Positions 18,501 through 64,000 of a DNA stretch of 64,000 bases are shown here, piece by piece. How positions within the stretch are numbered: position 1 is the first letter of the stretch; each line of letters begins with the position of its first letter. The notes under the pieces were generated by a model. It was not told the DNA's origin and searched no databases. It was given only the letters and a program-made list of their open reading frames with translations. Made by a program: the position numbers and the translations under genes. The DNA comes from an uncultured Bacteroides sp. (GTDB lineage Bacteria > Bacteroidota > Bacteroidia > Bacteroidales > Bacteroidaceae), in contig CASFPE010000034.1 of NCBI GenBank assembly GCA_949296575.1, positions 116,062 to 180,061 on the forward strand, read 5' to 3'.

Positions 18501-21500
18501 CCAACATTGAGTACATCGAGTTCTGGATGCTGGATCCTTTCATCTACGAGTCCACGAGCGGCAAGCGGCGCGGCGGCTCGTTTGTCATCAACTTGGGCGA
18601 AGTGTCGGAGGACGTGCTGAAAGACGGCAAGAAATTCTACGAAAACGGCATTCCCGTGGACGGCGACATGAGCAAAGTGGACAGCACCGTGTGGGGCCGA
18701 ACGCCCAAAGAAAGAAGCATCGTCTATGCTTTCGACAACCAGAACCGAACCATACAAGACGTGGGATTGGACGGGTTAAGCTCCGCAGACGAACAGACAT
18801 TCAGTTCCTACCAAAACTATCTAAACAGCATACAAGCCGTGGTGTCGGCCGAAACATTCCAACAGTTCCAGAAAGACCCCGCCGCCGACGACTTCCACCA
18901 TTACCGGGGCAGCGACCTCGATGCACGCGAGGCATCCATCCTGGAACGCTACAAGTATTACACCGGCACGGAAGGGAACTCTCTTGCCTCCAGCGAACTG
19001 GCCGCCAAGACAACCCCTGACATAGAGGACATCAACCAAGACAACACGATGAACGAAACAGAAAAATACTACGAATATGTCATCGATTTGGACCCTGCCA
19101 AAATGCAGGTGGGCAGCAACTACATCAGCAATGTCCGCGAAGCATCCGTGAAACTGCGCAACGGCAGCACGGAGACGGTGAAATGGTACCAGTTCAAAGT
19201 GCCCATCAAATCCGGCCGGTCGGTCAACGGCATCAGCGACACCAAGTCCATCCGCTTCATGCGCATGTACCTCACCAACTTTGAAGAACCCACCGTGCTG
19301 CGTTTCGCCACCATGGAGTTGGTGCGCGGCGAGTGGAGAACCTACGAACAACCGCTGTCGGAAACGGCAGCATCGGGCGCCACCCTCGACGTGGCTGCCG
19401 TCAACTTGGAGGAAAACGGCGACAAAGAGCCGGTGAACTACGTCATCCCGCCCGGCATATCCCGTGTGCTCGACCCCAGCCAGCCGCAGTTGGTACAGGA
19501 AAACGAACAGTCCATGAGCCTGAAGGTGATGAACTTAGGCAGCGGCGATGCACGGGCTGTCTACAAAAACACAGCCATGGACATGCGGCAATACCGCCGC
19601 CTGAAAATGTTCGTGCATGCCGAACGTCTCGTGGGCGACATGGCTTTGGAAGATGACTACATCTCTGTGTTCGTCCGCTTGGGTTCTGACTACAAGAACA
19701 ATTACTATGAATATGAAATCCCGTTGAAGCTCACGCCGGAAGGGCAATACTCGGATGCCACGGGAAGGGAAGCCGTGTGGCCGGAAGAAAACATGCTGGA
19801 CTTGCCTTTCACCGTGCTGACCGACCTGAAGAAAGAGCGCAACACCGCCAAGAACCGGGGCGAAGCGGGCGTGAGCTATGCCGCCGTGTACAGTTCCTAC
19901 GACCCGGACAAACCGTCAAACAAAGTCAGCATCATCGGAAACCCCAGCCTGGCAGAGGTGAAAACCATCATGATTGGAATAAGGAACAACTCACGCGCCA
20001 CGCAGTCTGCCGAAATATGGGTGAACGAACTGCGCCTCACCGATTTCAATGAGGACGGCGGATGGGCAGCACAAAGCAACCTGAACGTGCAGTTGTCTGA
20101 CTTGGGCACCATCAATGTGGGAGGGCATGTGGAAACTGCCGGTTTCGGAGGATTGGAACAAAGCGTCAGCGAACGCCGCTTGGACAATTTCTACCAATAC
20201 AACATCACCACCAGCTTTGAATTGGGAAAACTGTTCCCCGCCAAAGCAAAAATCAGCGCGCCCATCTACTATTCTTTCTCCAAAGAAATCACAAGCCCGC
20301 TGTACAACCCTTTGGACCAAGACATCTTATTGGATGACGCCTTGGCAACATTCACCACCAAACACCAGAAGGATTCCTTGAAAAGCATCGCACAAGAAGT
20401 GTCTACCTACAAGAACTTCAGCCTCAGCAACGTGAGAATAGACATCACCAGCAAGACACCCATGCCCTACGACCCCTCCAACTTTACGTTCGGATACTCG
20501 TTCACCAAACTGCACAACCAAGGGAACACCACGGCTTGGGAAATAGACAACAACTGGAATGCCAACTTCGGGTATGCCTATGCACCGGCACTTCCTGCCT
20601 GGGAACCGTTCAAAAAGATAAAAGGAAAGTCCAAATGGCTGAAGATGTTCAAAGAGTTCGGCATCAACTATCTGCCCCAAAGCATTTCTTTCAACACTGA
20701 CATGACGCGCCACTACTATGAATACCAAATGCGCAATCTGGAAAACACATACGGCGCCGACATGGAAATACCTCTTTCCACCTCCAAGGATTTCTTGTGG
20801 AACCGCGACTTCTCCATCCGTTGGGACATCGTGAAAGCATTGAAGCTGAACTTCTCCTCTGCCACGCAGGCAGAGATTGAAGAACCCTACGGGGCGGTCA
20901 ACAAAAACATGTATCCCGATGAATACACGGCATGGAAAGACTCCGTGAAGCGAAGCCTCTTGTCGTTCGGACGGCCATTGGAATACCAGCAATCGTTCAG
21001 CGCCAACTTGCAATTGCCGTTGAACAAACTGCCGCTGCTCGACTGGGTAACAGCTGATGCCCAATTCTCCTCGTCCTATAATTGGGACAGAGGCGTGGAA
21101 TTAGACGACGGGAGTGCCATGAACACCATCACCAACCAACGCTCGTTTGACGTGAACGGGCGGTTCAACTTGGAATTGCTGTACAACAAGGTGCCGTTCC
21201 TCAAGGACACGAACAAGAAATTCGCCTCCAACCGCCGCAGCACCGTGAACAGCCGGGGACGCACCACCACGGCCAAGAAAAAGACGGTGAAGAAGTTCGA
21301 AAAGGAAATACAACTCTACCCCGACACGACCCTTGCCATCCCTCACAAATTAGGAAGCAAGAAGGTGAAGGTGTCCGCACTGACGCAAGAGGGGAAAAGA
21401 TACCCCGTGAAATACAAAGTGAAGGATGCCAACCAGATTCTGCTCACGAGCAACGACTCCATCAAAATAAAGCTTACTGTGCTGCCCGGGCCTAAGCCTG

Positions 21501-45840: not shown

Positions 45841-47370
45841 ATGAAAACAACACTCTTTTCAATGGCGGCACTGCTCCTGATGGCATCCTGCGCATCCAAT
45901 CTTCCCAAGGACGTGCGGCTTTCACCCGCTCCCGATGCGGAAAATATCAACCCCGACACACACTTGGCACTCCTTTTCAAAGAAAAGCCCATTGTGAACG
46001 ATTCTGGAATGATCCGCATCTACGAGGCCGGCACACACCGTTTGATAGACAGCCTCGACCTGAGCATCCCCGCAGGCCCCACGGAAAGCCGGACCTATGG
46101 GCCGGAATGCGACTACACAAAGATTCCATATGATTACACACGCACCTATGTCCCGACCAACAAGAATACCCGTCCAGGCACGCCGTCGGGCATGGCAGAA
46201 CCCACATCCCATGAATACCAACTGAACATCATCGGCGGGTTCACCGACGCTTTCCACTTCCATCCCGTCATCGTGCGCGACTCCATCGCCACCATCTACC
46301 CGCACAACAACATGCTGGAATACGGGAAAACCTATTACGTGACCATCGATGAAGGCGCCATCACCCTTCCAAGCGGAAAATTCAAAGGCATCACAAAGCC
46401 CAATGCATGGACATTCACCACCAAGGCCGCCGCGCCTGCATCCACCGACACCCTGATTGTGGATGCCAGCGGAAAGGGAGATTTCAACACGGTGCAAGGA
46501 GCGCTGGACTTCATCCCCGACTTTTCGGAACAAACGACCGTCATCCTCGTGCGCCCCGGCGACTATGAAGAAATCGTTTATGCCCGCAACAAAACGAACA
46601 TAAAAATAAAAGGAGCCGGCATGGACTGCACCCGCGTGCATTATGCCAACAACGAAGTGTTCAACCCCCACCCCATGAACGTGAAAACCAACGAATGGCC
46701 CGGCACATTCCCTTCGCGCCGTGCAGCCTTCATGCTCGACAACTGCCACGACATCACCTTGGAAGACATCACCATCGCCACAACCTTGAAAGGACAAGCC
46801 GAAGGACTGTTGCTGAACGGCGAACGCATCGCCCTCTACCGTGTGCATGTCATCGGGTCGGGAGATGCCCTGCAAGCCAACGGCACCATCTATATGGAAG
46901 CCTGCCAGATTGACGGCGATGGCGACACCATACTGGGACGAGGCAGCCTGTTTGCTTATCGGTGCGACTTGCGCAACAGCGGAGGGCCTTTCTCTTGGGT
47001 AAGGAACACAGCCGGGAACCACGGGGACGTGTTCGTGGAATGCACGTTCTCCTGCCCCGACGGACACATGGGCGACTACGGGCGCACGAAAACAAACCAC
47101 GGTTCTTCCTATCCCGACGCTGAATTTGTAGTGATAGACTGCCGCGTGAAAAACATCATCCCTGAGGGCTGGAGCAGCATCGGCGAAAGAACGGCACGGA
47201 TGTATGAACACAACACCCGCGACCTCGACACAGGAAAGCCCGTTGACGTGTCGCGCCGCCACCCCTACTCCCGCCAGTTAGATGCCGTAAGGGATGCGGC
47301 CTTGCTCCGCAACTACCGCAACCCGGCCTTCGTGTTGAAGGGATGGCAACCGCAAAGCCAACTGCAATAA
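45841..47370 (+). CDS. pectinesterase-like (CE8) lipoprotein
   Basis: ORF 45514.. trimmed to MKTTLFSMAALLLMASC (lipobox). The C-terminal half has a pectinesterase-like beta-helix with FNTVQGALDFIP, GSGDALQ and DGDGDTILG in place of the QDT/DFIFG motifs. Confidence 0.65.
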   Translation: MKTTLFSMAALLLMASCASNLPKDVRLSPAPDAENINPDTHLALLFKEKPIVNDSGMIRIYEAGTHRLIDSLDLSIPAGPTESRTYGPECDYTKIPYDYTRTYVPTNKNTRPGTPSGMAEPTSHEYQLNIIGGFTDAFHFHPVIVRDSIATIYPHNNMLEYGKTYYVTIDEGAITLPSGKFKGITKPNAWTFTTKAAAPASTDTLIVDASGKGDFNTVQGALDFIPDFSEQTTVILVRPGDYEEIVYARNKTNIKIKGAGMDCTRVHYANNEVFNPHPMNVKTNEWPGTFPSRRAAFMLDNCHDITLEDITIATTLKGQAEGLLLNGERIALYRVHVIGSGDALQANGTIYMEACQIDGDGDTILGRGSLFAYRCDLRNSGGPFSWVRNTAGNHGDVFVECTFSCPDGHMGDYGRTKTNHGSSYPDAEFVVIDCRVKNIIPEGWSSIGERTARMYEHNTRDLDTGKPVDVSRRHPYSRQLDAVRDAALLRNYRNPAFVLKGWQPQSQLQ

Positions 47371-47419
47371 AACAGCAAAGGCTTGGACAGGAGTCCAAGC
47401 CTTTGCGCATTTCAAGCGG
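47316..47419. repeat. left copy of 104-nt direct repeat flanking the type I RM island
   Basis: Matches 56110..56213 at 99/104 positions by hand alignment. It covers the last ~17 codons and stop of the pectinesterase-like gene plus a hairpin. Confidence 0.9.
47376..47405. terminator. hairpin (13-bp stem) after the pectinesterase-like gene
   Basis: CAAAGGCTTGGAC agga GTCCAAGCCTTTG. There is no strong T-run. A second copy at 56170..56199 has loop GAAT. Confidence 0.5.
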
Positions 47420-47518
47420 CAAGAGATGAATTATTTTGTCGCTTAATGCCTCCCCATATCAGACGCACAATCAAAGCAAGGATAACGCTCGTAATCCACA
47501 CCTACGTAAACGTCCTCT

Positions 47519-47676: not shown

Positions 47677-50600
47677 TTACGGCTCTGCCGCCATTGAGGG
47701 ATAATCATTATTGAGTATCTCATAAGGTCTAACCGATGTAACTTGAGGTATCGAAATCTCCATTTTAAAATCTTCGAGGAACATTTCCTTATTCTCATCA
47801 ATCAGTTTCTTGACTTTCGCATCATTTGTCTGACGAAGATAACGCCGAAGAAGTTTGTTGTATTCCTTTTCTATATCCTCTCGTGAAAAATTGGGACTAC
47901 GAAGCATTGCCACAAATTTTCCGTCCTCACGGAAAAAGGTAAAAAGCTGTTCCATTTGACCAAGCCAAAACTGCATTTCCTGTTCACGTTCTTCTTCCGT
48001 AGCATTCATTCTGGCAAGTTGATCAAAAATACTAACGAGGCCGGATGTAACACGTTTCTTTCCTGATGGAGGCGTCTGTGTTCCCGATTCACCACCATCC
48101 AATTCACTTGGTTCTTCAACTTCTATTTCCTCACTGACAAGCAAACCTAAACTGCCGTCATAAGAAGTAGATATAAAACCGATTGCGCTCTGACTTTCAA
48201 ACATAGAACGATAGATATTACAATATCGTTGCCAAAAATCAATAAATACCGCGTCAGAGAATTTTGGATCAATCTCAATAACTCCTTGTAAAAGCAAAAG
48301 TTTAGAATTATATCTGCCGATAGCTTTACGCAACGCTTTAGCTGCATCATCTGCATGAGTTTGATCTACTTGTTCTCCACGAGTTTCTACTTCTTGAATA
48401 TACCGGGCATGAGCATCAATCATATTTCTAATCCATATCCGTATATCTGCATCCATTTCAAGGCAAAGAGTCATATTGGTTTCTTTGTTCGATAATGAGT
48501 TACGGTAGCGATCAAACCATTTGGTATAAACAGGTTGCGCCAATAGTCCCCGATGTATTTCTGCAATAACAGCCTTTTCGCGAATTGGGTCAAAATCGGA
48601 TATTAATATGCCACAAAATTCAGCAAAGGCATCTCGGATATTCTTTTCGTTGACGTTCTTAAATGAGAAATCTACGATGTGGCATTCTTCCTTGTATTTT
48701 GTAGTACGATTGACACGTGAAATAGTCTGAATGGCATTGATGCCGCGAATTTCTTTGTCAAGGAAAAGCGTATGGAGCTTAGGCTCGTCAAAACCAGTCT
48801 GAAGTTTGTCTACGACAATAATAATTCCATTCTTGGCAGTTTTAAAGTTATCAATAACCCTATCCTCTGCTACATTGTCATTCATTGACGCACATTTTTC
48901 GTATTTCTGATTGTCAGAATATACAATCGCAACGGGGGCATCAGCATATTTCGCAAATGACCCAGTTGCTGTTTTTTCAGCCATCATATGCCGGATAGCT
49001 TTGCAATACTCTATTGCAATCGGAATGGAACTAACTGCAAGCATGGCTTTGCCTGTTCCTCTTATTTTTCCATAAACCTGCGACAACAAACGATTGACTA
49101 TGAACTTAGAAATAGCCAATATGCGCTCATGGTTTTCATAAACCTTACGTTTGGCCATTGATACTTTATCTTCACGCCCTTCCTGAATAGCCTGCGCCAC
49201 CGCTTGGGAAAGTGCAGTCGGCATATCAAAATGCATTTTTACGTTAACAGGAATAATATGCTTCGCCGGATCAAGGATATATCCGTCAGCTATAGCTTCT
49301 TTCATTGTGTAAGCATCAAACGGCTTCCACAATTGGTTGAAATTAGCACCACGATGAAACTCTCCGAAGCGTGCAAGCACTCGCTGACTTGGCGTTGCCG
49401 TAAAACCTACGATAAGATTCTTCTTAGTAGAGCCACGAGTAAGGAAACCGCCATCCTCGTCAAAAATATCCTGAAGTTCATCAAATGCAGAGAACATTTC
49501 CTGATGGACATCGTCTGTATTGGAACGGTGAACCTCATCTATCAGAAATGCCACACGCAAATTCTTAAAGTCTTTCCCTGCCTTGGTTATCGCATTTTTC
49601 AGTTCCCAGAACTTCTGTATATTCACCACAATGATGCGTCGTTTGTCACTAAGAGCCTTAACAAAAGTATCTTGATCGGTTGCCTCCACAAACATCGCCT
49701 TGTCAATATTCATGTTGAGCATCATGGAATCAAGTTGGTCGCGTAACTGCAAACGGTCAACAACAAGCAAAATCTTGTCATAAACCCATGCTCCGTTATA
49801 GCGCATATCTTTAAGTTGCAACGCAGTCCACCCAATGATGTTGCTCTTTCCGAACCCTGCCGCATATTGCAACAAAAGGGAATAGACATATTTGTTATTG
49901 CAATAACTGTCACGCTCTGCCACAATTCGTTCTATTACATCTTGTGGAGCGTTCATTGCCGTGAGTTCAGCACGAAGTTTCTCAATGAAGTAGTTTGGCT
50001 CGCCTTCATGAGCAAGAAATTCCTGAATGCGGTCAACGATGCGATCGCAGCCGAATTTCTGCTTCGGGCGTGGACACATTAATCTGCCGGTCTTGTCTTT
50101 ATATTCTTTCTTATGTACTTTACGCCCATTCTCTGTTACAGTAATGGTTTTATACGTATAAGCCATAAAGTTATAATAGAGAATCTCTTTCTCTATCATC
50201 TTCTTTGAATAAAGGGAGCGCATTGCCTCCTCAAATCTGGCACGGGGTTCAACGTCATCACCAGCCATAGTCGGCAAGGATTTAAATTCTTTTTCAACCA
50301 CAGGACGATATGATGAGATGGAAATCAGATTTTCCTGAAATCCTTTTTTCACATCTTCAAAGAATTGCCCCGGATTACGGAGTACGTATGTGCTGTTAAT
50401 GTCCGTTGTGACAAGGTGAATGGATTTCTCAAATGGACGAAGCATGGAACGGCGCAATGATTGTTGTGCATCATTTCCATTGGCTATTTTGGTATATTCC
50501 CAAACAGCCTCCAGATAGTCGGTAATCACCTTGGTACGTCCGTTCCTTTTTGCCGTCTGATTGGTAAAATTACTCTTCAGTTCGGCATATCCCAAGAATA

Positions 50601-51078
50601 TGCCGTTTACAAAGAATGACAGGTCTGGACGGAATGCAAAAATTCTTTTTCCTCCATGATGGAAAGAATAAGTCATTTCCTCCACGGCAGAAAAAATATT
50701 CTTCTCAAAATCTTCATCGCCGCGAAGTTCCGTGCCACTGACATACAAAAGTTTTAATGTCTCGCCGCCGAAAGAATAGGGCTTGTTTTTTGTGGTGCTG
50801 TTCAAGAATATGGCGACATTGGCACTTGTTTCTATTTTACACCTGATGTCATCCATGATATCACGAAGCAGCTTCTGCTCATCGCCATCATACTCATTGC
50901 GCCGAAGCAGATTGTTCCAACTGACACGTGAATTTTCTTTCAAGAATTCCTTTAAGTCGGCGGGTATGAAAATATCAGGCGTGACGGTATTATTCTTCAC
51001 CTCACGGAATCCAAGTCCATCGCTACGGCGGCAGAAGAAATCCATTACATATTCGCCTTGCAGTTCAAGTTCAGTCAT
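47677..51078 (-). CDS. hsdR: type I restriction endonuclease subunit R
   Basis: 1133-aa ORF with an N-terminal PD-(D/E)xK (RPDLSFFVNGIFLGYAELK). SF2 helicase motifs are AAGFGKSN, LIDEVHRS, FTATP and QTISRVNR. Confidence 0.9.
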   Translation of the reverse strand: MTELELQGEYVMDFFCRRSDGLGFREVKNNTVTPDIFIPADLKEFLKENSRVSWNNLLRRNEYDGDEQKLLRDIMDDIRCKIETSANVAIFLNSTTKNKPYSFGGETLKLLYVSGTELRGDEDFEKNIFSAVEEMTYSFHHGGKRIFAFRPDLSFFVNGIFLGYAELKSNFTNQTAKRNGRTKVITDYLEAVWEYTKIANGNDAQQSLRRSMLRPFEKSIHLVTTDINSTYVLRNPGQFFEDVKKGFQENLISISSYRPVVEKEFKSLPTMAGDDVEPRARFEEAMRSLYSKKMIEKEILYYNFMAYTYKTITVTENGRKVHKKEYKDKTGRLMCPRPKQKFGCDRIVDRIQEFLAHEGEPNYFIEKLRAELTAMNAPQDVIERIVAERDSYCNNKYVYSLLLQYAAGFGKSNIIGWTALQLKDMRYNGAWVYDKILLVVDRLQLRDQLDSMMLNMNIDKAMFVEATDQDTFVKALSDKRRIIVVNIQKFWELKNAITKAGKDFKNLRVAFLIDEVHRSNTDDVHQEMFSAFDELQDIFDEDGGFLTRGSTKKNLIVGFTATPSQRVLARFGEFHRGANFNQLWKPFDAYTMKEAIADGYILDPAKHIIPVNVKMHFDMPTALSQAVAQAIQEGREDKVSMAKRKVYENHERILAISKFIVNRLLSQVYGKIRGTGKAMLAVSSIPIAIEYCKAIRHMMAEKTATGSFAKYADAPVAIVYSDNQKYEKCASMNDNVAEDRVIDNFKTAKNGIIIVVDKLQTGFDEPKLHTLFLDKEIRGINAIQTISRVNRTTKYKEECHIVDFSFKNVNEKNIRDAFAEFCGILISDFDPIREKAVIAEIHRGLLAQPVYTKWFDRYRNSLSNKETNMTLCLEMDADIRIWIRNMIDAHARYIQEVETRGEQVDQTHADDAAKALRKAIGRYNSKLLLLQGVIEIDPKFSDAVFIDFWQRYCNIYRSMFESQSAIGFISTSYDGSLGLLVSEEIEVEEPSELDGGESGTQTPPSGKKRVTSGLVSIFDQLARMNATEEEREQEMQFWLGQMEQLFTFFREDGKFVAMLRSPNFSREDIEKEYNKLLRRYLRQTNDAKVKKLIDENKEMFLEDFKMEISIPQVTSVRPYEILNNDYPSMAAEP

Positions 51079-51176
51079 AATATAGTGTTCTAATAGAATT
51101 GTGATTTTCTATGCAAATAAAAACTGATTAAATATCAATATGTTACAAGTTGTGTGGATTTTCTTTGAAAATAAGA

Positions 51177-52637
51177 TTACGCATAGAAGGGTACATAAGT
51201 TGAGAACTTCTTTGAGATGCTGTCTTCGTCCGCTGGTTTTATTAGTTTCTCTGTTATTGTATCTGCAATGATACGTGAGGCGGCAGCAGATTGATTCTTA
51301 TTCAGACCAAAACGCTCCCGGACAGATTGGTTGTTGGTGGCAATATTGTCCTCGAACATCAGGCAGGCATGTTGGTAACAAGCCATGATTTTCTCTCGTT
51401 TTGTCATTTCCGCAAGAGTTTTTTGAGGGAACAAAGACACACGGGTGTAATCTTCAAGAGATTGGAATTTAACAGGCGGAAGAAACATCTTTTCTATAGC
51501 TTCAATTGCCCTGTCCACTCCACTTCCTCTCCGTTCACACAATCCAAGCAAAAGCATGGATTGTGCTAACTTTTCATTTCTTGAGCGAGGAGGCAAATCT
51601 ATCAACCGTGCGATATTGTTTAGAGGTGCGCCGGGATTTGTAATCACAAGGCGATTGCTGAATATCTCGATTGTTATGGGTGAACCGTCAATGGCAAAAT
51701 CCTGGTGTATAAGCGCATTGGCTACAAATTCCCTAATGGCGACATTCGGGTAAATCGGTTCAATGCTTCGTGAAACGTCTATAACCTCTTTCCCGGTATT
51801 GCGCATGATAAAATCAATTAGTCCTTCAAAGCCTGCCGCATAACCAAGGCTTTCATGTTGCTCAAATTGCAATTGCCTGTTATTTTGCCCTTCGTATTTG
51901 CGAACCACAACTTCACGGCCGCTTAAAGATGGAAATCTTTTCAGAGAACGGGCGAATAAAATTGCTCCAAGATTTGTTATAGTCCATTTCCCGTTCGTTT
52001 CCGTACAATATCCCATCTCTTTAAGCAAGGAAGCAATTGTATCCGTGGACTTAGGAACATTCCTGTCAAGCAAGCTATAAAGTGCTTGGTAATCCAACAA
52101 ATCAAGCACTTGATTTTGCGTCAAATCATCAAGAGCGGAACTTTCTTCAAAAGAAATACCTTTTGATTTAGCTATCAGTACCTGAACTTGTTTTGGAGAC
52201 ATTTTCAAGGTCTGTCCTCCTGAACGATAATAAGATGCATAAATATCTTTACCTCTTAAATGTACAGGTTTCTCTGCTTCCTCTGGGATATATACAAACA
52301 GTAAGTTATGCCCCTCATAACATTGAACAGAATGCTCAATCTGAATATGGCTTGAAAGATTGTTATAGGCAATATTACCCAGTTTCTTGACTATTCCGTC
52401 GATCTGTTCTTTAGTCAGAGAAAATAATGTTCCATCATCGTTGACACCATATACAAGCATACCGCCATATAAATGATTGGCAAAAGCCGAAATGTGCTGT
52501 GCCAGTCTGTCCGTCTTGTCTGACAACCCGCTTTTCCAATCTATCTCGTTCAGTTCACAGGGGACTGGTTCAAGACTATCTTTTAATAATTGTAAAGCTC
52601 TTTCTGTCCAATGCATTTTTTCATTAATTAATGGCAC
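51177..52637 (-). CDS. AlbA_2 (Schlafen-like) + HATPase_c_4 domain protein embedded in the type I RM operon
   Basis: 486-aa ORF. The N-domain has HISAFANHLYGGMLVYGVNDDG, as in AlbA_2 / 'putative DNA-binding' domains. The C-domain has FVANALIHQDF...ITNPG...CERRGSGVDR, as in the HATPase_c_4 / RecG-C-like family. A GTG start at 52637 overlaps hsdS by 14 nt; an alternative ATG lies at 52616. Confidence 0.75.
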   Translation of the reverse strand: MPLINEKMHWTERALQLLKDSLEPVPCELNEIDWKSGLSDKTDRLAQHISAFANHLYGGMLVYGVNDDGTLFSLTKEQIDGIVKKLGNIAYNNLSSHIQIEHSVQCYEGHNLLFVYIPEEAEKPVHLRGKDIYASYYRSGGQTLKMSPKQVQVLIAKSKGISFEESSALDDLTQNQVLDLLDYQALYSLLDRNVPKSTDTIASLLKEMGYCTETNGKWTITNLGAILFARSLKRFPSLSGREVVVRKYEGQNNRQLQFEQHESLGYAAGFEGLIDFIMRNTGKEVIDVSRSIEPIYPNVAIREFVANALIHQDFAIDGSPITIEIFSNRLVITNPGAPLNNIARLIDLPPRSRNEKLAQSMLLLGLCERRGSGVDRAIEAIEKMFLPPVKFQSLEDYTRVSLFPQKTLAEMTKREKIMACYQHACLMFEDNIATNNQSVRERFGLNKNQSAAASRIIADTITEKLIKPADEDSISKKFSTYVPFYA

Positions 52638-53784
52638 GTTGGCCGGTTACTACTTCGTTTATCAGTGAACGTTTCAGTTCTTTCAATAGCTCTATTTTAG
52701 ATTCTATCATCTTAATGATTGCGTCTATCTTATTGCACTTGTCATCGAGATAGGCAACATCTTTTAATTGTTCTTCGATAGGTGGAAGATATATTGGCAT
52801 ATTGGTCAATTCTACCATATCAACAGCAGCAAAAGTTGTTACTCTACATCCACGTTTACAATACTCATCAATATGGAAGAATTTATAAAACATCCATTTA
52901 ATCGACACTTTTTCTTTCAGCGATTTACGAATTTTAAAATTCGTAAATTGCTGATTCGCAAGCGAATCAGCAATTAGCCAAGCATGTTCGCCAATTGTAG
53001 CAGTAGTAGTAAGTATGAAAGAATTAGCTTCGAATAATCCTGCTGTTTTTATAGCTTCTTGCGTAATATGTTGAATCGAATCAGAAAGAATACGTCCATT
53101 TTTTCGTATATCCTCCATCCTAAACCATGGGATAGTTCCCCCTTCCCAAAATTCATTAACCGCTTTTGATGGTGTATATCCATTTCGCAATTCAAATACA
53201 TCTTTCAAGCGGTATGCATGATAGTTTGGGTTCTTTTGTGTAACTGTTTTTATTATTAGAGAATGACGTAGGTTACGGTAACAATCAACCTTTCGTTCCA
53301 ACAAACCAATCTCCTTCCCAATCTTTCCGCACTCCTTATCTAAATAAGCCACTATCGCTTCTTGCTCAGCAATAAGTGGAAGAGATAACGACACACTTCC
53401 TACTTGCAAAGCATTAGTCCGAGGCATCTTCACTCCAGCTACTTGATTTTTAATGTAGCTAATAAATGAACAGGAAAGAAGGAAATAGAGGAGAAATTTA
53501 TTATTAACCAAATCATTAGGACGTAGAACAATAAATTCTGGTGAACAAATAGAGTCATGTGTGGGAATATATCCCTTGGCAAGGTACGGACGAAGCTTGC
53601 CAAACAGGACATCCCCAGTTTTACAGACATTACTATTCCCATCTGAGGCCGAATCAGATGGAATATAAGTACTATCCCAACTGACAATGTTATCCAAAGC
53701 GATATATGGCAATGAACAATCATTCGCCTTTTCGCTTATAAACTTGGCAACATCTTTAATGCGATAGGTTTGCCACTTATTCAT
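52624..53784 (-). CDS. hsdS: type I restriction-modification specificity subunit S
   Basis: 386-aa ORF with two target-recognition halves separated by conserved helices (LPLIAEQEAIVAYLDKECGKI and LPPIEEQLKDVAYLDDKCNKI). Confidence 0.9.
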   Translation of the reverse strand: MNKWQTYRIKDVAKFISEKANDCSLPYIALDNIVSWDSTYIPSDSASDGNSNVCKTGDVLFGKLRPYLAKGYIPTHDSICSPEFIVLRPNDLVNNKFLLYFLLSCSFISYIKNQVAGVKMPRTNALQVGSVSLSLPLIAEQEAIVAYLDKECGKIGKEIGLLERKVDCYRNLRHSLIIKTVTQKNPNYHAYRLKDVFELRNGYTPSKAVNEFWEGGTIPWFRMEDIRKNGRILSDSIQHITQEAIKTAGLFEANSFILTTTATIGEHAWLIADSLANQQFTNFKIRKSLKEKVSIKWMFYKFFHIDEYCKRGCRVTTFAAVDMVELTNMPIYLPPIEEQLKDVAYLDDKCNKIDAIIKMIESKIELLKELKRSLINEVVTGQRAIN

Positions 53785-55796
53785 AGTTCTATCTCCTTTT
53801 CAAGATTAGCCAATTCCGCATCAATCTCCGCTATTTCCGCAAGGATAGCGTCAACCGGTTCTACCGTTTCAGGCACATAAAACTCCTTGTTAAAGTTTAC
53901 TTCTACCCCTACTGTATTGTCGAGCAGGCGGTAGGGCTTGGAAATATACCGACGCATAAATGCAAGAATGCCTTCGCCGTTCTGTGCAGAATCCGGATGA
54001 TAAGGGATAATCTCAAAATCCTTGTATGTAGAATCTGCTATCTTTACCGTACAGGTCTTATCGCCTCTCCGGGTACGATTGTATGTCACAGTGATACTTC
54101 CCACACCAAGTGCCTCGTGCATTCCTGTAGCAACGGATGTGCGCATAATCGCCCCATTTGCATCATCTGCCCAATAAAAATACTCTGCTGTGGAAACAAT
54201 GGTTGAACCCGTAATTTGGCGAAGACGGATCATTTCCTCTTGATTCTTCCATTCCTTCTCGTCATCAAGAGGCCACTCCCAACTGCCGGAAGCATAAACA
54301 GCCACAATGTCCGCATCCTTTATTTTAAATGTTTCACCTGCGCAACCAAGCGATTGGCTTACGTAACGACCATTCTTATCTACTTCCGTAAGCTGTATTT
54401 GCTGCTTATTAAAGTAAAAATGCCATTTGTCGAAAACCTTGGAAATATCGTTGTCCTCAAAGCGCACAAGGGAATCCACAATCCGTTTGCGGTGTTCTGC
54501 ATTCATCTCTTTCCGCTTGGAACCTTTGTTCTTTTTCAATGGCTGCCAAAGGTCGGAAGCGTTGATAAGAATCACCTTATCCTTGCGCTCGGCTGGCTTT
54601 TTCTTATTCAGTATCCAAAGATAAGTGACAATGCCCGTATTGAAGAACTCATCGGAAGGCATCTGGACAATTGCTTCCACCCAGTCATTGTCAAAAAGGT
54701 ATTTGCGAATGTTGCTTTCGCCACTGCCGGCATCTCCACTAAACAGGGAACTGCCATTGTTGACCTCAACCACAATACCGCTATTTTCATGAAGCATCCA
54801 AGCATTGTGCTGAAGGAATAAAAGCTGTCCGTCGCTGACAGATGGGAAAAACGCAAATTGTCCGGTTTGGTCATTGCGTATTTCTTTTTCATACCCTTTC
54901 CACGGAATGCCGTATGGAGGATTTGCAACAACCACATCAAACTCTTTGTCTTTAAACGGCAATGTGGTTAACGTATTGCCATATTTAACTTCTGCTTCTT
55001 CGCGGAATAGAGATTCAATTTTAGCCAAAGCGAAAAGAGCATCGTTCCACTCACTGCCGTTAGCGGCAACATATTTATAGCCAGCCTTATTGAGACGGTC
55101 TGCTACCCCGAACAGGAGATTGGCACCTCCACAAGTCGGGTCATAAATATGCACATAATCATCATGACTGATGTTTATTTTCGCCGTCACAATCTCAGCA
55201 ATCAGTGCAATAATGTCTTCCGGCGTATATTGTTCTCCGGCTGTTTCAGCAGAAATATCCGCCCACTTGCGCTTGATATGCTCTTCAAGAGTCGTTATTT
55301 CAGAGTTATTGTATGGAGAAAGGTCGATTTGTGCCCACTTGGTTACATACTGCAGAAGCACCCCTTTCTTGCGAAGCTCGGCAACAATGCCGTCAAGATT
55401 CAAGAATTTACTGTCATCTGTTCCTCGTTCTATTCCAAGCAATTCCTTTAACACTCCATCGAAACCGGCAAGATAGTGGCGGAAATCATCTTCAAACGTC
55501 TTGTCATTGTTGCAGATGTCAGACAGCGTCTTGCCATCCTTGACAATATATTCATTGTATCCGCAATCCCTGTCTTTGAATGCTTCCACAAATTCTTCCG
55601 GATTATCTTTTCTGCTTAGTCCTTCTGTCCGCTCTATGTCAACCATCTCATTGCGCATACGCCCTTCCAGCATAACCAACGCAAAGAAGGGCATCATGTG
55701 TTTCGGGAAATCGCTTTGTTTGATTCCCGTAGAAATAAGAAGGTCTGCACAAGACCATATATCCGATTCGTATGATAGTATATCTTTCATAATCAT
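53781..55796 (-). CDS. hsdM: type I restriction-modification methyltransferase subunit M
   Basis: 671-aa ORF with an HsdM N-domain, SAM motif YDPTCGGANLLF and catalytic VVANPPYG. ATGA overlaps occur at both ends. Confidence 0.9.
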   Translation of the reverse strand: MIMKDILSYESDIWSCADLLISTGIKQSDFPKHMMPFFALVMLEGRMRNEMVDIERTEGLSRKDNPEEFVEAFKDRDCGYNEYIVKDGKTLSDICNNDKTFEDDFRHYLAGFDGVLKELLGIERGTDDSKFLNLDGIVAELRKKGVLLQYVTKWAQIDLSPYNNSEITTLEEHIKRKWADISAETAGEQYTPEDIIALIAEIVTAKINISHDDYVHIYDPTCGGANLLFGVADRLNKAGYKYVAANGSEWNDALFALAKIESLFREEAEVKYGNTLTTLPFKDKEFDVVVANPPYGIPWKGYEKEIRNDQTGQFAFFPSVSDGQLLFLQHNAWMLHENSGIVVEVNNGSSLFSGDAGSGESNIRKYLFDNDWVEAIVQMPSDEFFNTGIVTYLWILNKKKPAERKDKVILINASDLWQPLKKNKGSKRKEMNAEHRKRIVDSLVRFEDNDISKVFDKWHFYFNKQQIQLTEVDKNGRYVSQSLGCAGETFKIKDADIVAVYASGSWEWPLDDEKEWKNQEEMIRLRQITGSTIVSTAEYFYWADDANGAIMRTSVATGMHEALGVGSITVTYNRTRRGDKTCTVKIADSTYKDFEIIPYHPDSAQNGEGILAFMRRYISKPYRLLDNTVGVEVNFNKEFYVPETVEPVDAILAEIAEIDAELANLEKEIEL

Positions 55797-56005
55797 TCAT
55801 TATTACCGCCATTAATAAGCTGGCGAGGGTCTACATTCAAAAGCTTTGCAATCTTCACAAGCGTATCAAGAGAGGGTTGCATTTTGTTGGAACACCAACG
55901 AGAAACAGTTGCTTCGTTTTTTCCAATCTGTTCCGCTAACCATTTCCCTGTTTTGCCATTCTCCACCAAAACAACTTTTAGTCTATTGATTTTTTGAGAT
56001 TCCAT
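55793..56005 (-). CDS. XRE-family helix-turn-helix protein, first gene of the RM operon
   Basis: 70-aa ORF with the HTH KWLAEQIGKNEATVSRWCSNKMQPSLDTLVKIAKLLNV. Its stop overlaps the hsdM ATG (ATGA). Confidence 0.8.
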   Translation of the reverse strand: MESQKINRLKVVLVENGKTGKWLAEQIGKNEATVSRWCSNKMQPSLDTLVKIAKLLNVDPRQLINGGNNE

Positions 56006-56049: not shown

Positions 56050-56057
56050 CAAATATA
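56050..56057 (-). promoter_or_regulatory. Bacteroidetes-type -7 box (TATATTTG on minus strand) for the XRE-hsd operon
   Basis: TAnnTTTG match 45 nt upstream of the ATG at 56005. Confidence 0.45.
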
Positions 56058-56109: not shown

Positions 56110-56213
56110 CCGCAACCCCGCCTTCGTGTTGAAGGGATGGCAACCGCAAAGCCAACTGCAATAAAACAGCAAAGGCTTGGACGAATGTCCAAGCCTTTGC
56201 GCATTTCAAGCGG
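56110..56213. repeat. right copy of 104-nt direct repeat flanking the island
   Basis: See 47316..47419. It retains an in-frame remnant (...NPAFVLKGWQPQSQLQ*) of the pectinesterase-like C-terminus and the hairpin 56170..56199. Confidence 0.9.
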
Positions 56214-56224
56214 GAACCGCCGGT

Positions 56225-56782
56225 TTATTTGTCGCCGAAATAGCGGTTGTACAAGCCCTCGAATCCTTTTCCGTGGCGGGCTTCGTCCTTGCACATTTCA
56301 TGAACCGTGTCGTGGATGGCATCCAAGTTCAAAGCCTTTGCACGGGTAGCGATGCGCTTCTTGTCCTCGCAAGCGCCTTGCTCTGCATCTTTGCGCTTCT
56401 GCAAGTTGGTCTTTGTGTCCCACACGCAGTCGCCCAGCAGTTCGGCAAACTTGGCAGCATGTTCTGCCTCTTCCCAAGCATAGCGCTTGAAAGCCTCGGC
56501 CACTTCGGGATAACCCTCGCGGTCGGCCTGGCGGCTCATGGCCAAGTACATGCCCACTTCCGTGCATTCGCCCATGAAATGGTTGTTCAGGTCCTTGATC
56601 ATTTCTTCGTCGCAGCCTTTGGCCACGCCGATGACGTGTTCGTCAGCAAAGGTGAGAGGGCCGTTCTCGCTCTCTGTGATTTCCACGAACTTGCTGGCCG
56701 GAGCCTTGCACATAGGGCATTTCTCAGGGGCTGCGTCGCCTTCGTACACATAACCGCAAACTGTACATCTAAACTTTTTCAT
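56225..56782 (-). CDS. rbr: reverse rubrerythrin (N-terminal rubredoxin-like + ferritin-like domain)
   Basis: 185-aa ORF with CTVCGYVY...CPMCKAP at the N-terminus, then diiron ExxH motifs ([18 protein letters not shown]). Confidence 0.8.
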
Positions 56783-61241: not shown

Positions 61242-61249
61242 TATGTTTG
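61242..61249 (+). promoter_or_regulatory. Bacteroidetes-type -7 box (TATGTTTG)
   Basis: TAnnTTTG match 45 nt upstream of the ATG at 61294. It lies inside the 5' extension of ORF 61243.., which argues for the downstream start. Confidence 0.45.
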
Positions 61250-61293
61250 TAGATGACATTGGAATATTGCACCCTCACAACAACGAGAAAATC

Positions 61294-62925
61294 ATGCAGA
61301 TACACGATAACAGACTTATAGCAGAATGTACATCTTACGATTTCAAGGAGATGCTGGAACGCAAGAAAGTGAAGTCGTGGCTCAAATCCGTGTCGGCTTT
61401 TGCCAATACGGATGGCGGCAGCTTGTTCTATGGCGTAAACGATGAAGGTGAAGTTGTGGGCTTGGAGAACCCGCAGGCGGATGCCGACTTTATCAGCGAA
61501 ATGATAAAGGCACGGCTTGACCCTGTGCCGGAAGTGCAGCTTATACCGATGGAGTACGAAGGACGCACCCTGCTTGAAGTGAAAGTCAAGGCCGGAGTGC
61601 TGACACCTTATTACTATTATCAAGACGGAACACGCACGGCTTTTGTCAGGGTAGGCAATGAAAGTGTGGAATGCAATGCGCAACAACTCCTCTCGTTGGT
61701 GCTGAAAGGCACGCACATGACGTGGGATTCGCTCCCTACTCAAGTGGATGCCCACAAGCACTCTTTCATCATCCTTGCCAATACATTCCGCGAACAGACG
61801 CATCAGGAATGGAACGACAAGCATTTGGAGTCGTTCGGGCTGGTCACGTCTGACGGCAAGCTGACCAATGCCGGACTGCTGTTTGTGGACAACTGCACCG
61901 TGTTCCAGTCGCGCATTTTCTGCACCCGTTGGACGGGGCTTTATAAAGACGATGCCATCAGCTCGGTAGAACACCGTGCCAACCTCGTCCTGCTTTTAAA
62001 GTACGGCATGGACTTCATCAAGAACTACACGATGAGCGGATGGGTGAAGATGCCAAACTACCGCCTCAATCTGCCCGACTATTCCGACCGGGCTATCTTT
62101 GAAGGACTGGTCAACCACCTTATCCATCGGGATTATACGGTAATGGGCGGCGAGGTGCATATCGACATTTACGATGATCGTGTAGAACTGGTGTCGCCCG
62201 GTGCGATGCTCGACGGCACACAGATTCAAGACCGCGACATCTACAATGTGCCGTCCATACGCCGCAACCCCGTCATTGCCGATATGTTTACCCAGCTTGA
62301 CTACATGGAGAAACGTGGCTCCGGCCTCCGCAAGATGCGCGAACTGACCGAGAAGCTGCCCAACTTTCTGCCCGGCAAGGAGCCCCGTTACAAGACCGAA
62401 GCCTCCTCGTTCTTCACCACTTTCTATAACTTGAATTGGGGCGAGAACGGTAGAATCCCCGTAGAAGAGGTGGCCGACAGGGTAAACAGTACCCTCAAAA
62501 AGTGCCCTGTAAACGAAGAAAGTTCGGAGAAGAAGTTCGGTGAAAACGGAAAAAGTTCGGAGAAGAAGTTCGGTGAAAACGGAAAAAGTTCGGTGAAAAC
62601 CTTCGGTGATTCACAAAAATCTTCGGTGGAAAAGTTCGGAGACAGCAGCCTAAGTTCGGAGACAAGGTTCGGAAACAACAGTGAAAGTTCGGAAACAAGG
62701 TTCGGAAAGGTTGCAAATGAGAATAAAAGTGTTGGAAAGACCGCACAAAAAATCATAGACTTAGTTATTTCCGACCCTTCCATTTCTGCCGAAGCTATGG
62801 CTTATCGTATAGGTGTCAGTTCGAGAGCAGTAGAAAAACAAATTGCCAAACTGCGTTCTATGGGGATTTTAACTCGTGAGGGCGCAACCTTTGGTGGTTA
62901 TTGGCGCATCATAGTAAAACCATAA
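61294..62925 (+). CDS. AlbA_2 (Schlafen-like) + HATPase_c_4 + repeat linker + C-terminal winged-helix protein
   Basis: N-domain has SVSAFANTDGGSLFYGVNDEGEVVG and the middle has LVNHLIHRDY...VSPG...MEKRGSGLRKM. Six 11-aa SSxxxFG repeats follow. The C-terminus ISAEAMAYRIGVSSRAVEKQIAKLRSMGILTREG is wHTH-like. Confidence 0.75.
   Translation: MQIHDNRLIAECTSYDFKEMLERKKVKSWLKSVSAFANTDGGSLFYGVNDEGEVVGLENPQADADFISEMIKARLDPVPEVQLIPMEYEGRTLLEVKVKAGVLTPYYYYQDGTRTAFVRVGNESVECNAQQLLSLVLKGTHMTWDSLPTQVDAHKHSFIILANTFREQTHQEWNDKHLESFGLVTSDGKLTNAGLLFVDNCTVFQSRIFCTRWTGLYKDDAISSVEHRANLVLLLKYGMDFIKNYTMSGWVKMPNYRLNLPDYSDRAIFEGLVNHLIHRDYTVMGGEVHIDIYDDRVELVSPGAMLDGTQIQDRDIYNVPSIRRNPVIADMFTQLDYMEKRGSGLRKMRELTEKLPNFLPGKEPRYKTEASSFFTTFYNLNWGENGRIPVEEVADRVNSTLKKCPVNEESSEKKFGENGKSSEKKFGENGKSSVKTFGDSQKSSVEKFGDSSLSSETRFGNNSESSETRFGKVANENKSVGKTAQKIIDLVISDPSISAEAMAYRIGVSSRAVEKQIAKLRSMGILTREGATFGGYWRIIVKP
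62521..62718 (+). repeat. six in-frame 33-nt tandem repeats (first two identical)
   Basis: AGTTCGGAGAAGAAGTTCGGTGAAAACGGAAAA occurs at 62521 and 62554, followed by four diverged units that each encode SSxxxFGxxxx. Confidence 0.9.
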
Positions 62926-62942: not shown

Positions 62943-63647
62943 ATGACAATCTTTATCTTGACCTCCATCTTATTGGTCGCAGCTTTGGCGATAGCCTTGC
63001 TTATGGGCGTTTCTCCTGCGAGCCAAAAGGTCAAAGTCTGGTCGATGTATGTCGGAGCTGCGCTTATGCTCGTAATTGCTCTTATCGTCTGCGACTATAT
63101 TGATGCTTTGCCGGATTTTCCGTCCAAGTTCCGATTCCATGCGGTATTGGTGCTTACCATAACCGTAGGTTATCTCTGTATTTCCATTGCCTTTATGGAA
63201 AAGAACAATGTTCTAAAGCGTAAAAACCGCATACTTGAAAATGCTCTTACTGAGAAAGAGCAAGAGAAAGTATCCATTCTGATGGAGCGCCAAAGCGAAC
63301 AGCAACAAGCGCTCCAAAAAGGAGAACTTGAATGGTTTGCCGAGAAAATAAAGATGTTCAGCGAGGAGGAACAGAAGGCTATTCTTGCCAGTGCCTACGC
63401 ATTTGCAGAACACGATTTGATTCTTCCACCTTCAATTACAATCCAACCTAATGATATGTGCAGTCAGCAAGAACTCATGTATTTCGTTTACTCCGCTTTC
63501 TCCAACATGGGCAAGAAGCGCAGCGACATTGTGAGTTTCTTATGTCAGGTTTTCAAGGCATACTTTCCTACTGGTGAGAGTGCTGTATCAAAGAAGATGC
63601 CGGGATTGGATAAGGTTAAGGAGAGAAGGGAGAATGAATGTAACTAG
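62943..63647 (+). CDS. membrane protein (3 TM + coiled coil + C-terminal domain), unknown function
   Basis: 234-aa ORF starting 17 nt after the upstream stop. Three hydrophobic helices occupy residues ~1-85, followed by a Glu/Gln/Lys-rich helix and a ~90-aa C-domain I do not recognise. Confidence 0.6.
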   Translation: MTIFILTSILLVAALAIALLMGVSPASQKVKVWSMYVGAALMLVIALIVCDYIDALPDFPSKFRFHAVLVLTITVGYLCISIAFMEKNNVLKRKNRILENALTEKEQEKVSILMERQSEQQQALQKGELEWFAEKIKMFSEEEQKAILASAYAFAEHDLILPPSITIQPNDMCSQQELMYFVYSAFSNMGKKRSDIVSFLCQVFKAYFPTGESAVSKKMPGLDKVKERRENECN

Positions 63648-63681
63648 ATGATGTATTTCAATATTATAGAATAGAGTTAAC

Positions 63682-64000
63682 ATGAACAATACACTCATAG
63701 ATAATTCCATAGAAGCACTTTCGATGACAATCACATTACGGAAGTGTATATCGACCGACGGTGTGAAGACCATTAGTTTTGCTACTGGTTATTGGGACAT
63801 ACCCGGTCTTGCCATATTGCAAGAAGAATTAAGGCATTTCCTGGAAAAAGAAGGGACAGTGCTCCGTTTACTTATCGGGAAAGACCCTTATGTATACGTC
63901 AATCAGTTGAAGTCACCCAAATACAAAGACGCAAACTATCCACAGGATTTTATCAGAACAGATATCCATGAACTTGATGTCGTTGAGGAATACAAAGCGG
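63682..64000 (+). CDS. PLD-like (NgoFVII/Bfi-type nuclease fold) domain protein, N-terminal fragment
   Basis: Open frame from the ATG at 63682 to the window end (MNNTLIDNSIEAL...ISFATGYWDIPGLAILQEEL...LRLLIGKDP). This pattern resembles N-terminal PLD-like domains of helicase/nuclease defence proteins. It is absent from the ORF track because no stop falls in the window. Confidence 0.45.
   Translation, partial: MNNTLIDNSIEALSMTITLRKCISTDGVKTISFATGYWDIPGLAILQEELRHFLEKEGTVLRLLIGKDPYVYVNQLKSPKYKDANYPQDFIRTDIHELDVVEEYKA

Follow-up and report, generated by a model that had tools for sequence, protein, structure and literature searches.

In a 64-kb window from the genome of an uncultured Bacteroides sp. 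(the window is the whole stretch of 64,000 nucleotides analysed here), a type I restriction-modification (RM) operon carries, between its hsdS and hsdR genes, a gene that combines a Schlafen (AlbA_2) nuclease domain with a GHKL ATPase-like domain. The gene is best read as encoding a self-contained, portable Schlafen-GHKL protein with a C-terminal winged helix-turn-helix (wHTH), that is, a 'Schlatpase' of the HisKinase-HTH class of bacterial Schlafens (pSlfn). Moreover, we lean, with modest confidence, towards the view that the protein is a self-contained, ATP-gated Schlafen RNase, which would act as an abortive second layer of defence and would be embedded in restriction operons for co-expression and co-transfer. 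The architecture of the protein, the conservation of its motifs and its genomic pattern are direct observations and are presented first.

The initial annotation had read the domains AlbA_2 and HATPase_c_4 from sequence signatures, and profile searches bear this out. In particular, on the 486-aa form of the open reading frame (ORF), Pfam places SLFN_AlbA_2 at residues 29-146 (E 9e-16; 58.9 bits, cut-off 25.3) and HATPase_c_4 (PF13749) at residues 318-402 (E 1.6e-19; 70.1 bits, cut-off 26), both matches being far above what chance would give. Otherwise, residues are numbered from the ATG at position 52616, which gives a protein of 479 aa. The top PADLOC match is the N-terminal part of the SLFN-pAgo model (pAgo, prokaryotic Argonaute), which spans residues 35-340 and covers both domains; only pAgo and Ago-associated models are returned by PADLOC, and NCBIfam has no family for either of the two Schlafen paralogues of the window. 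The gene and its parts are the following:

51177..52616, minus strand: Schlafen(AlbA_2)-GHKL(HATPase_c_4)-wHTH gene, 479 aa from the ATG (ORF, Pfam, homologue lengths, AlphaFold2, Foldseek)
52167..52616, minus strand: single-lobe Schlafen/AlbA_2 nuclease domain, residues 1-150 (Pfam, PDB profile; predicted local distance difference test score, pLDDT, mostly 75-95)
52533..52556, minus strand: predicted catalytic motif E21-L-N-E-I-D26-W-K28, of the form E-x4-(D/E)-x-K (translation, conservation)
51792..52166, minus strand: middle helix/strand domain, residues 151-275 (AlphaFold2, pLDDT mostly 73-95)
51417..51791, minus strand: GHKL/Bergerat ATPase-like domain, residues 276-400 (Pfam HATPase_c_4, profile match to 3lmm)
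51180..51416, minus strand: C-terminal helical domain, residues 401-479, probably a wHTH (AlphaFold2, pLDDT 66-90)

The motifs of both enzymatic domains are intact. The E-x4-(D/E)-x-K motif, in the definition of two recent studies (10.1101/2025.07.24.666596; 10.64898/2026.05.29.728809), is accompanied by a SAFAN box at residues 43-47 (ISAFAN, 42-47), and the GHKL domain carries E296-x3-N300, N327-P-G329 and R363-G-S-G366. Residues E21, D26, K28 and N47 are invariant wherever an orthologue has the residue (78 of 79 aligned, with one gap), E296, N300, G329 and G364-G366 are invariant across orthologues that share only 50-89% identity, and the acidic D61 is kept in 95%; of the four regions, the middle domain (151-275) varies most, with a mean entropy of 1.76. 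The Schlafen nuclease motif is also retained by both paralogues of the window. Since the Schlafen and GHKL motifs are intact, the label of RecG-like helicase or plain regulator, already doubted in the initial annotation, is inadequate for this protein.

Structural comparison likewise supports the Schlafen fold that had been proposed. A family profile (A4, 41 sequences) matches the PDB entries 3lmm and 2kyy together with the nuclease lobe of SLFN11, SLFN5, SLFN12 and SLFN13; the matches to the SLFN proteins involve the C-lobe region only, and that to 3lmm includes the GHKL region. The AlphaFold2 model has a mean pLDDT of 78, with the N-terminal and middle domains mostly well predicted, and Foldseek against the PDB returns 3lmm (E 6e-17), SLFN12 (1e-4), SLFN13 (4e-4) and SLFN11 (1.4e-3), as well as 2kyy and the DNA-binding domain of SAMD9. 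The best PDB matches, namely DIP2311 of Corynebacterium diphtheriae (3lmm) and 2kyy, have the same multi-domain layout (profile E 1e-10), but are structural-genomics entries without an assigned function, and their identity is only ~13-16%. Pfam recognises one AlbA_2 stretch only, so that the protein does not contain the bilobed core made of an N-lobe and a C-lobe; with its single Schlafen lobe it resembles RzAgo and differs from mammalian Schlafens. In the alignment with SLFN11, N59 and D60 stand opposite its 'DD', and the conserved acidic position is D61. As for the C-terminal domain, the model shows three helices followed by short strands, weak Foldseek matches to MarR and Z-alpha wHTH proteins are found, which are not mapped to a domain, and Pfam detects no HTH in the protein itself and an HTH_24 at the equivalent end of the paralogue. 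On the basis of the model, the last ~80 residues are probably a winged helix.

Proteins of this kind, bacterial relatives of the human Schlafens that act against viruses by cutting RNA, have recently received attention. Bacterial Schlafens are anti-phage tRNases according to a preprint by Taboada et al. (10.1101/2025.07.24.666596), in which Slfn-HisKinase (34.0%) and Slfn-HisKinase-HTH (19.2%) are the commonest architectures in the set of prokaryotic Schlafens (pSlfn1-55) and RorSlfn5 is a phage-activated tRNase whose Ig-like domain is a sensor of a T5 tail-assembly chaperone. The window protein shares with these pSlfn proteins the nuclease domain and its motif and the association with defence islands, and its architecture is that of their commonest classes; it differs from RorSlfn5 in that it has no Ig-like sensor. 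The pair SLFN+GHKL has been named 'Schlatpase' by Kuzmenko et al. (10.64898/2026.05.29.728809), who report that SLFN-GHKL proteins make up 58.6% of 103,533 proteins, that in RzAgo an ATP-driven tetramerisation rebuilds a bilobed nuclease which cuts tRNA, and that type I RM operons of Poribacteria contain Schlatpases either as stand-alone proteins or fused to HsdS. The likeness to RzAgo, from Runella zeae, is close: both proteins have an N-terminal single-lobe SLFN_AlbA_2 followed by a PF13749 GHKL domain, both display the E-x4-(D/E)-x-K motif, the SAFAN box and the GHKL E-x3-N, and E296/N300 appear, by sequence, to be the equivalents of RzAgo E314/N318. What differs is the sensor, which is an Argonaute in RzAgo, whereas the window protein ends in a short winged-helix-like domain. 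Because the window protein has no Argonaute sensor, a guide-RNA filament/DNA-target trigger cannot apply to it.

After RzAgo and RorSlfn5, the only two proteins for which ATP-dependent oligomerisation and tRNA cleavage are reported, we infer RNase activity, a tRNA substrate, ATP-driven assembly and an anti-phage role for the window protein. Specifically, an assembly driven by ATP would bring together two Schlafen domains of one lobe each, and the pair would be an active, bilobed RNase. This enzyme would then cut tRNA (or other RNA), stop translation and arrest the infected cell, thereby providing an abortive second layer of defence when DNA restriction fails, and embedding would give it co-expression and co-transfer with the restriction system. 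Since the protein moves between host systems that are unrelated to one another, its sensor most likely lies in the protein itself, in the winged-helix or middle domains, rather than in a contact with HsdMSR.

The position of the gene in its operon is as initially described. The ORF 51177..52637, on the minus strand between hsdS and hsdR, encodes 486 aa if an alternative GTG at 52637 is used, which overlaps hsdS, whose stop lies at 52624-52626, by 14 nt, whereas the in-frame ATG at 52616 lies 7 nt past this stop. With this gap of 7 nt, the gene is tightly linked to hsdS. Because the 120 best homologues in the database nearly all have a length of 479 aa, the ATG at 52616 is likely the true start. 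On the other side, the hsdR ATG at 51078 leaves the expected gap of 98 nt. The gene order in the cassette is XRE-hsdM-hsdS-X-hsdR, where X is the Schlafen-GHKL gene, and hsdM, hsdS and hsdR are confirmed by Pfam and PADLOC:

47677..51078, minus strand: hsdR, 1133 aa (Pfam HSDR_N, ResIII, SWI2_SNF2, T1R_D3-like; PADLOC REase_I)
51079..51176, minus strand: AT-rich spacer of 98 nt before hsdR, with the block TTTTTATTTGCATAGAAAATCAC ~30 nt upstream of the hsdR ATG
52624..53784, minus strand: hsdS, 386 aa (Pfam Methylase_S 4.6e-35, two stretches; PADLOC Specificity_I 2.4e-59)
53781..55796, minus strand: hsdM, 671 aa, with an NPPY motif (Pfam N6_Mtase 1.1e-46; PADLOC MTase_I, full-length, 2.7e-115)
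55793..56005, minus strand: XRE/HTH_3 gene of 70 aa, head of the cassette (ORF; Pfam HTH_3 on the identical gene in locus L090; PADLOC RmrA-like HTH)

The genomic pattern of the family was followed with a scan of one genome per species. Of the 415 relatives that it returned, those in the best 80 loci (50-89% identical and nearly all from Bacteroidota) were taken further, and the counts refer to the 78 loci in which the Schlafen gene could be placed. All neighbours at ±1 were searched with Pfam and PADLOC, and phmmer labelling was then seeded from them. When the neighbour proteins were clustered by BLAST, hardly any cluster was more than tiny, since the contexts are highly varied. The families of the immediate neighbours (73 upstream and 72 downstream proteins, Pfam) and the kinds of nesting observed are listed here:

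Upstream, Eco57I: 10 of 73
Upstream, N6_Mtase: 9 of 73
Upstream, Methylase_S: 5 of 73
Upstream, AAA_5: 4 of 73
Upstream, ResIII: 3 of 73
Upstream, ISP_coupler: 2 of 73
Upstream, MmeI and Mrr: once each among 73
Downstream, ResIII: 7 of 72
Downstream, T5orf172/MUG113: 5 of 72
Downstream, HSDR_N: 4 of 72
Downstream, Type_ISP_C: 2 of 72
Downstream, DUF2357 with PDDEXK_7: 2 of 72
Type I nesting, in the orders M-S-X-R, R-S-X-M and R-M-X-S: loci L010, L026, L048, L057, L082 and L087
Methyltransferase-X-[GIY-YIG-like + helicase] nesting: L030, L033, L034, L036 and L037
Split type ISP, [Mrr nuclease-helicase-coupler-methyltransferase]-X-[Type_ISP_C target recognition domain]: L029 4497-10964 and L040 13-6119
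ISP-like methyltransferase directly upstream of the Schlafen gene: L021 and L056
Weak AAA_5 (McrB-like)-X-DUF2357/PDDEXK_7 (McrC-like): L046 4618-11874 and L053 2492-8657
AAA_5-X-unannotated partner: L059, L062 and L064 (downstream partner of 737 aa in L059 and L062)

The remaining upstream neighbours belong to single housekeeping families in Pfam, such as DNA polymerase I, gyrase, TsaD and TatC. The enrichment of the family beside and inside restriction operons, on which the initial annotation had made its proposal depend, is clear: 13.8% of the neighbours at ±1 are Hsd-like, whereas from the fourth gene outwards only 1.4% are (odds ratio 11, Fisher p=3e-8). In total, ~20 of the 78 loci show co-directional nesting inside a restriction operon of any kind (type I, split ISP/IIG-like or McrBC-like), and ~6 are embedded among type I M/S/R genes; in the other loci no recognised restriction gene adjoins, and several lie among housekeeping genes. 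Each of the 20 embedded copies has both of its neighbours in its own direction (40 of 40), the median gap being 19 nt upstream and ~110 nt downstream. In a neighbour-joining tree embedded and non-embedded copies interleave; those embedded in type I operons fall into four or more distinct clades, and those in ISP systems into four. In other words, embedding in restriction operons is recurrent, promiscuous in its host system and not obligate. Relatives that are 89-100% identical keep the same M-S-X-R operon, with a variable HsdS; among those at 65% identity, the very abundant P0116 (264 contigs) lies between a fumarase/TSCPD gene and a methionine-sulfoxide reductase gene, and P0105 adjoins a HEPN_Swt1 gene. 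Beyond RM, the neighbours include the known defence genes HEPN_Swt1, AriA-like, MADS and HerA-like. A scan of viral contigs gave only 3 relatives, all near contig ends, and the Schlafen-GHKL gene is therefore not a typical phage gene. For the large PglX-like methyltransferases upstream in some loci, a bacteriophage exclusion (BREX) context was considered and rejected, as these enzymes are type ISP/IIG-like. One locus (L063 4746-9437) has two Schlafen-GHKL genes of 479 aa in tandem.

These observations point to a portable effector rather than an obligate, PrrC-like ward of the type I enzyme, because most orthologues are not nested, the tree interleaves nested and free copies, and 65%-identical copies lie among housekeeping genes. 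The class itself and its RM and BREX embedding are already described in preprints and papers of 2025-2026, so that the idea is no longer new: Schlafen tRNases (10.1101/2025.07.24.666596), type I Schlatpases (10.64898/2026.05.29.728809) and BREX backup effectors (PMC12839542) have all been reported. In the last of these, a 2026 paper in Nucleic Acids Research, Schlafen-HisK-wHTH is a widespread 'backup suicidal effector' of BREX and BREX-related loci. The domain architecture and the idea of an embedded second-layer effector are the same as here, and the role is computational in both cases; that context resembles the operon of the second copy in the window, with its HKD-Snf2 helicase and PglX-like methyltransferase, while the gene under study differs in sitting in a type I hsdMSR operon. 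More generally, 'guilt by embedding' has been formalised for type I RM, BREX and DISARM by Payne et al. (10.1101/2024.01.29.577857), and TgvAB of Vibrio is an example of an embedded system that works alone (PMC11411939).

Several points weigh against the self-contained RNase towards which we lean. In the study of Taboada et al., just 2 of 7 tested bacterial Schlafens protected E. coli, and these were DUF262 and Ig-like fusions, that is, other architectures (10.1101/2025.07.24.666596). RNase, ATPase or anti-phage activity has been demonstrated for no stand-alone Schlafen of the HisKinase-HTH class, this one included. The GHKL part is poorly modelled, with a pLDDT of 40-60 in the putative ATP-lid regions, and only an alignment gives the position of the third acidic residue in the Schlafen triad. 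In addition, the annotation of the neighbours is crude, being based on simple ORF calls and in part on incomplete contigs, and the 'not embedded' class may therefore hide unrecognised defence genes, and an embedding that is not obligate may also be compatible with a dependence on restriction systems located elsewhere in the genome.

PrrC, the model for an RM-guarded nuclease, combines an ABC-ATPase with an anticodon-nuclease domain. In the corresponding explanation, HsdM/HsdS, possibly with HsdR, would bind and silence the Schlafen protein, and phage anti-restriction (a DNA mimic or a Stp-like peptide) would free it. The gene does occupy the slot of prrC in the E. coli prr locus (EcoprrI), hsdS-X-hsdR, with a gap of 7 nt after hsdS, and the outcome predicted for it, RNA cleavage and abortive infection, is that of PrrC; embedded copies without exception share the direction of their neighbours and lie close to them, embedding in restriction operons has arisen repeatedly and independently, and the Schlatpase-HsdS fusion of Poribacteria (10.64898/2026.05.29.728809) brings the two partners into one chain. 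The lack of protection by some bacterial Schlafens expressed alone might also reflect a missing partner (10.1101/2025.07.24.666596), although these may have been of another class. Nevertheless, a latency of this sort, which the initial annotation had suggested, is not supported by the census: only ~6 of the 78 orthologous loci are type I-embedded, the orthologue group nests in at least three unrelated restriction architectures, and the type I, ISP/IIG-like and McrBC-like hosts have no common subunit to bind. PrrC, instead, is almost exclusively type I-embedded (10.1101/2024.01.29.577857). Embedded and free copies are close in the tree, and 65%-identical orthologues with the same motifs stand among housekeeping genes. 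Furthermore, the fold is unrelated, and Pfam, NCBIfam and PADLOC give no PrrC/RloC homology for the Schlafen-GHKL protein. A guard of the PrrC type is consequently considered unlikely, even if it fares best among the alternatives.

A broader version of guarding can be envisaged, in which the Schlafen-GHKL-wHTH protein would be a universal portable guard for type I, ISP/IIG-like, McrBC-like and BREX-related systems, firing on a common failure signal, for example DNA-mimic anti-restriction proteins acting on winged-helix domains, or unrestricted foreign DNA. We hold this to be improbable; if true, a missing cognate context or trigger could explain why some bacterial Schlafens were unprotective when expressed alone.

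Another explanation is that the protein is a DNA-binding regulator: the wHTH would bind operon DNA, such as the block in the hsdR spacer, the GHKL domain would act as a switch that responds to a ligand or ATP and sets when hsdR is expressed once a new host has been reached, and the Schlafen domain would bind nucleic acid instead of cutting it. Names given in databases, for instance 'predicted HTH transcriptional regulator' or 'putative DNA binding domain-containing protein', agree with this, as do the likely C-terminal wHTH and the HTH_24 of the paralogue. Moreover, the 98-nt spacer contains a 23-nt block, TTTTTATTTGCATAGAAAATCAC, that in the alignment is common to the spacers of 89-94%-identical operons and is possibly an internal promoter, an operator or a regulatory site; the spacer has no exact match to the Bacteroidota -7 motif, and a terminator scan shows no terminator-like site in it. 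A downstream gap of ~110 nt is typical of embedded copies, many of which are directly upstream of a nuclease subunit. However, this position is not constant (R-S-X-M, R-M-X-S, and ISP systems in which the R/M part precedes X), a stand-alone copy lacks an operon of its own that it could regulate, and invariant nuclease and ATPase residues are unexpected in a mere DNA binder. In addition, a dedicated XRE gene already heads the operon. This separate small gene, which likely controls the type I operon, is a more obvious regulator than the Schlafen-GHKL protein, which, with its 479 aa and enzyme domains, does not have the features of a C protein-like regulator, that is, a small HTH protein heading an operon. 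Genetics, too, points elsewhere. In Photorhabdus laumondii, the loss of TrlG, which has AlbA_2 and HATPase_c_4 domains, releases the cells from growth arrest at 36 °C (10.1101/2020.06.02.129163, PMC7554251) and so indicates a growth-arresting activity; no other genetic phenotype was found in the literature for a stand-alone protein of this domain pair. Compared by domain content, TrlG is similar to the window protein, and its operon is also headed by a small regulator gene, but its partner is a gene for a PHP-type 'histidinol phosphatase' and not RM, and the trigger is a temperature up-shift. Taken as a whole, the regulator explanation is very doubtful.

Equally hard to credit is a selfish hitch-hiker or stress-linked growth controller, that is, a toxin-like growth-arrest module with no anti-phage benefit of its own, whose transfer and retention would be tied by the restriction cassette to a selected system: the varied contexts, which include adjoining polA as trlG does (10.1101/2020.06.02.129163), the movement of the whole cassette as one unit and the selfish benefit of embedding discussed by Payne et al. 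(10.1101/2024.01.29.577857) fit it, but known defence genes (HEPN_Swt1, AriA-like, MADS, HerA-like) are among the non-RM neighbours, related Schlafen fusions defend against phage (10.1101/2025.07.24.666596; 10.64898/2026.05.29.728809), and very few copies are on viral contigs.

SLFN-GHKL proteins represent more than half of all prokaryotic Schlafens and are their commonest class. In this context, the locus offers a compact, apparently intact natural test case of five genes with defined borders. That one and the same orthologue is found inside restriction operons of four kinds as well as alone lets guarding and co-transfer be tested against each other, and the locus also lets the generality of an RzAgo-type, ATP-gated assembly of single-lobe Schlafens be tested.

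The borders of the cassette are marked by both composition and repeats. The five genes form a low-GC segment of 8.7 kb, with a GC content of 0.37-0.44 across ~47.5-56.0 kb versus 0.50-0.58 in the flanks, and are bracketed by a direct repeat of ~105-121 nt (90% identical over 121 nt) that has exactly two copies in the window:

47316..47436, plus strand: left copy of the direct repeat, with a terminator-like hairpin at 47375-47406 (repeat comparison)
56110..56230, plus strand: right copy of the direct repeat, with a hairpin at 56169-56200 that doubles as the rubrerythrin-side terminator (repeat comparison)

The cassette is one horizontally acquired mobile unit. Because this low-GC segment is bracketed by the direct repeat, the Schlafen gene came in together with the RM genes. 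Housekeeping genes flank the cassette, namely those for pyruvate kinase, an O-methyltransferase, an FtsX-like permease and a pectinesterase at one end and those for Fur and NAD synthase at the other; the ORF adjoining the right repeat is one that, from its sequence, we take to be rubrerythrin. No tRNA gene was found in the 64-kb window, and no integrase was seen in the cassette. In otherwise 89-94%-identical operons hsdS is the variable element, HsdS being made of two half-genes of 183 + 208 aa in L001/L010, of 386 aa in the window and of 434 aa in L092.

At the head of the cassette, the stop of the XRE gene overlaps the start codon of hsdM (ATGA), and in L090, an identical metagenomic copy of the operon, the XRE gene scores Pfam HTH_3. 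Bacteroidota promoters have the -7 consensus TAnnTTTG, and one candidate is found upstream of the XRE gene:

56050..56057, minus strand: TATATTTG, -7 promoter-like box ~45 nt upstream of the XRE ATG (position only)

We take TATATTTG to fit the -7 consensus. Since the motif is not enriched across the 64-kb window (46 matches versus 37.6 expected), it is the position of the box that suggests a promoter. A scan of the window for sigma-70 promoters and terminators gave the same counts as shuffled sequences.

The window contains a second Schlafen-GHKL gene, which had been noticed previously as a paralogue heading another cassette. A second SLFN-GHKL gene does head a methyltransferase-based cassette there, but its ORF starts at 61243, and the start given earlier, 61294, corresponds to the internal Met18:

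61243..62925, plus strand: paralogue SLFN-GHKL-HTH_24, 560 aa, 25% identical, at the head of a second restriction-like operon (Pfam)
62943..63647, plus strand: gene of 234 aa with no family match, second in the paralogue's operon
63681..64000, plus strand: HKD/PLD+Snf2 helicase, first ~106 codons, cut by the window end (N-terminus closely matching an L093 protein of 1153 aa)

The paralogue has abundant Bacteroides relatives named 'ATP-binding protein'. In the loci L093-L095, the operon is made of an SLFN-GHKL-HTH gene, the 234-aa gene, an HKD/PLD+Snf2 helicase and a type IIG/PglX-like methyltransferase; the helicase has PLDc_2 and helicase domains, is labelled 'HKD+Snf2' by PADLOC and is BrxH/DrmD-like. 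Judging from these genes, the paralogue's operon looks like a BREX-related or DISARM-like system. Because the L093-L095 operon includes a methyltransferase, both Schlafen-GHKL genes of the window are operonic with methylation-based restriction systems. Within the paralogue, 33-bp tandem repeats (~3 + 2.6 copies, 62511-62708) encode 11-aa repeats resembling SSEKKFGENGK in the linker before the HTH, and the length of this linker is probably variable, since the homologues range from ~480 to 590 aa. Elsewhere in the window, an ORF of 2453 aa extends over 15590-22951 on the plus strand.

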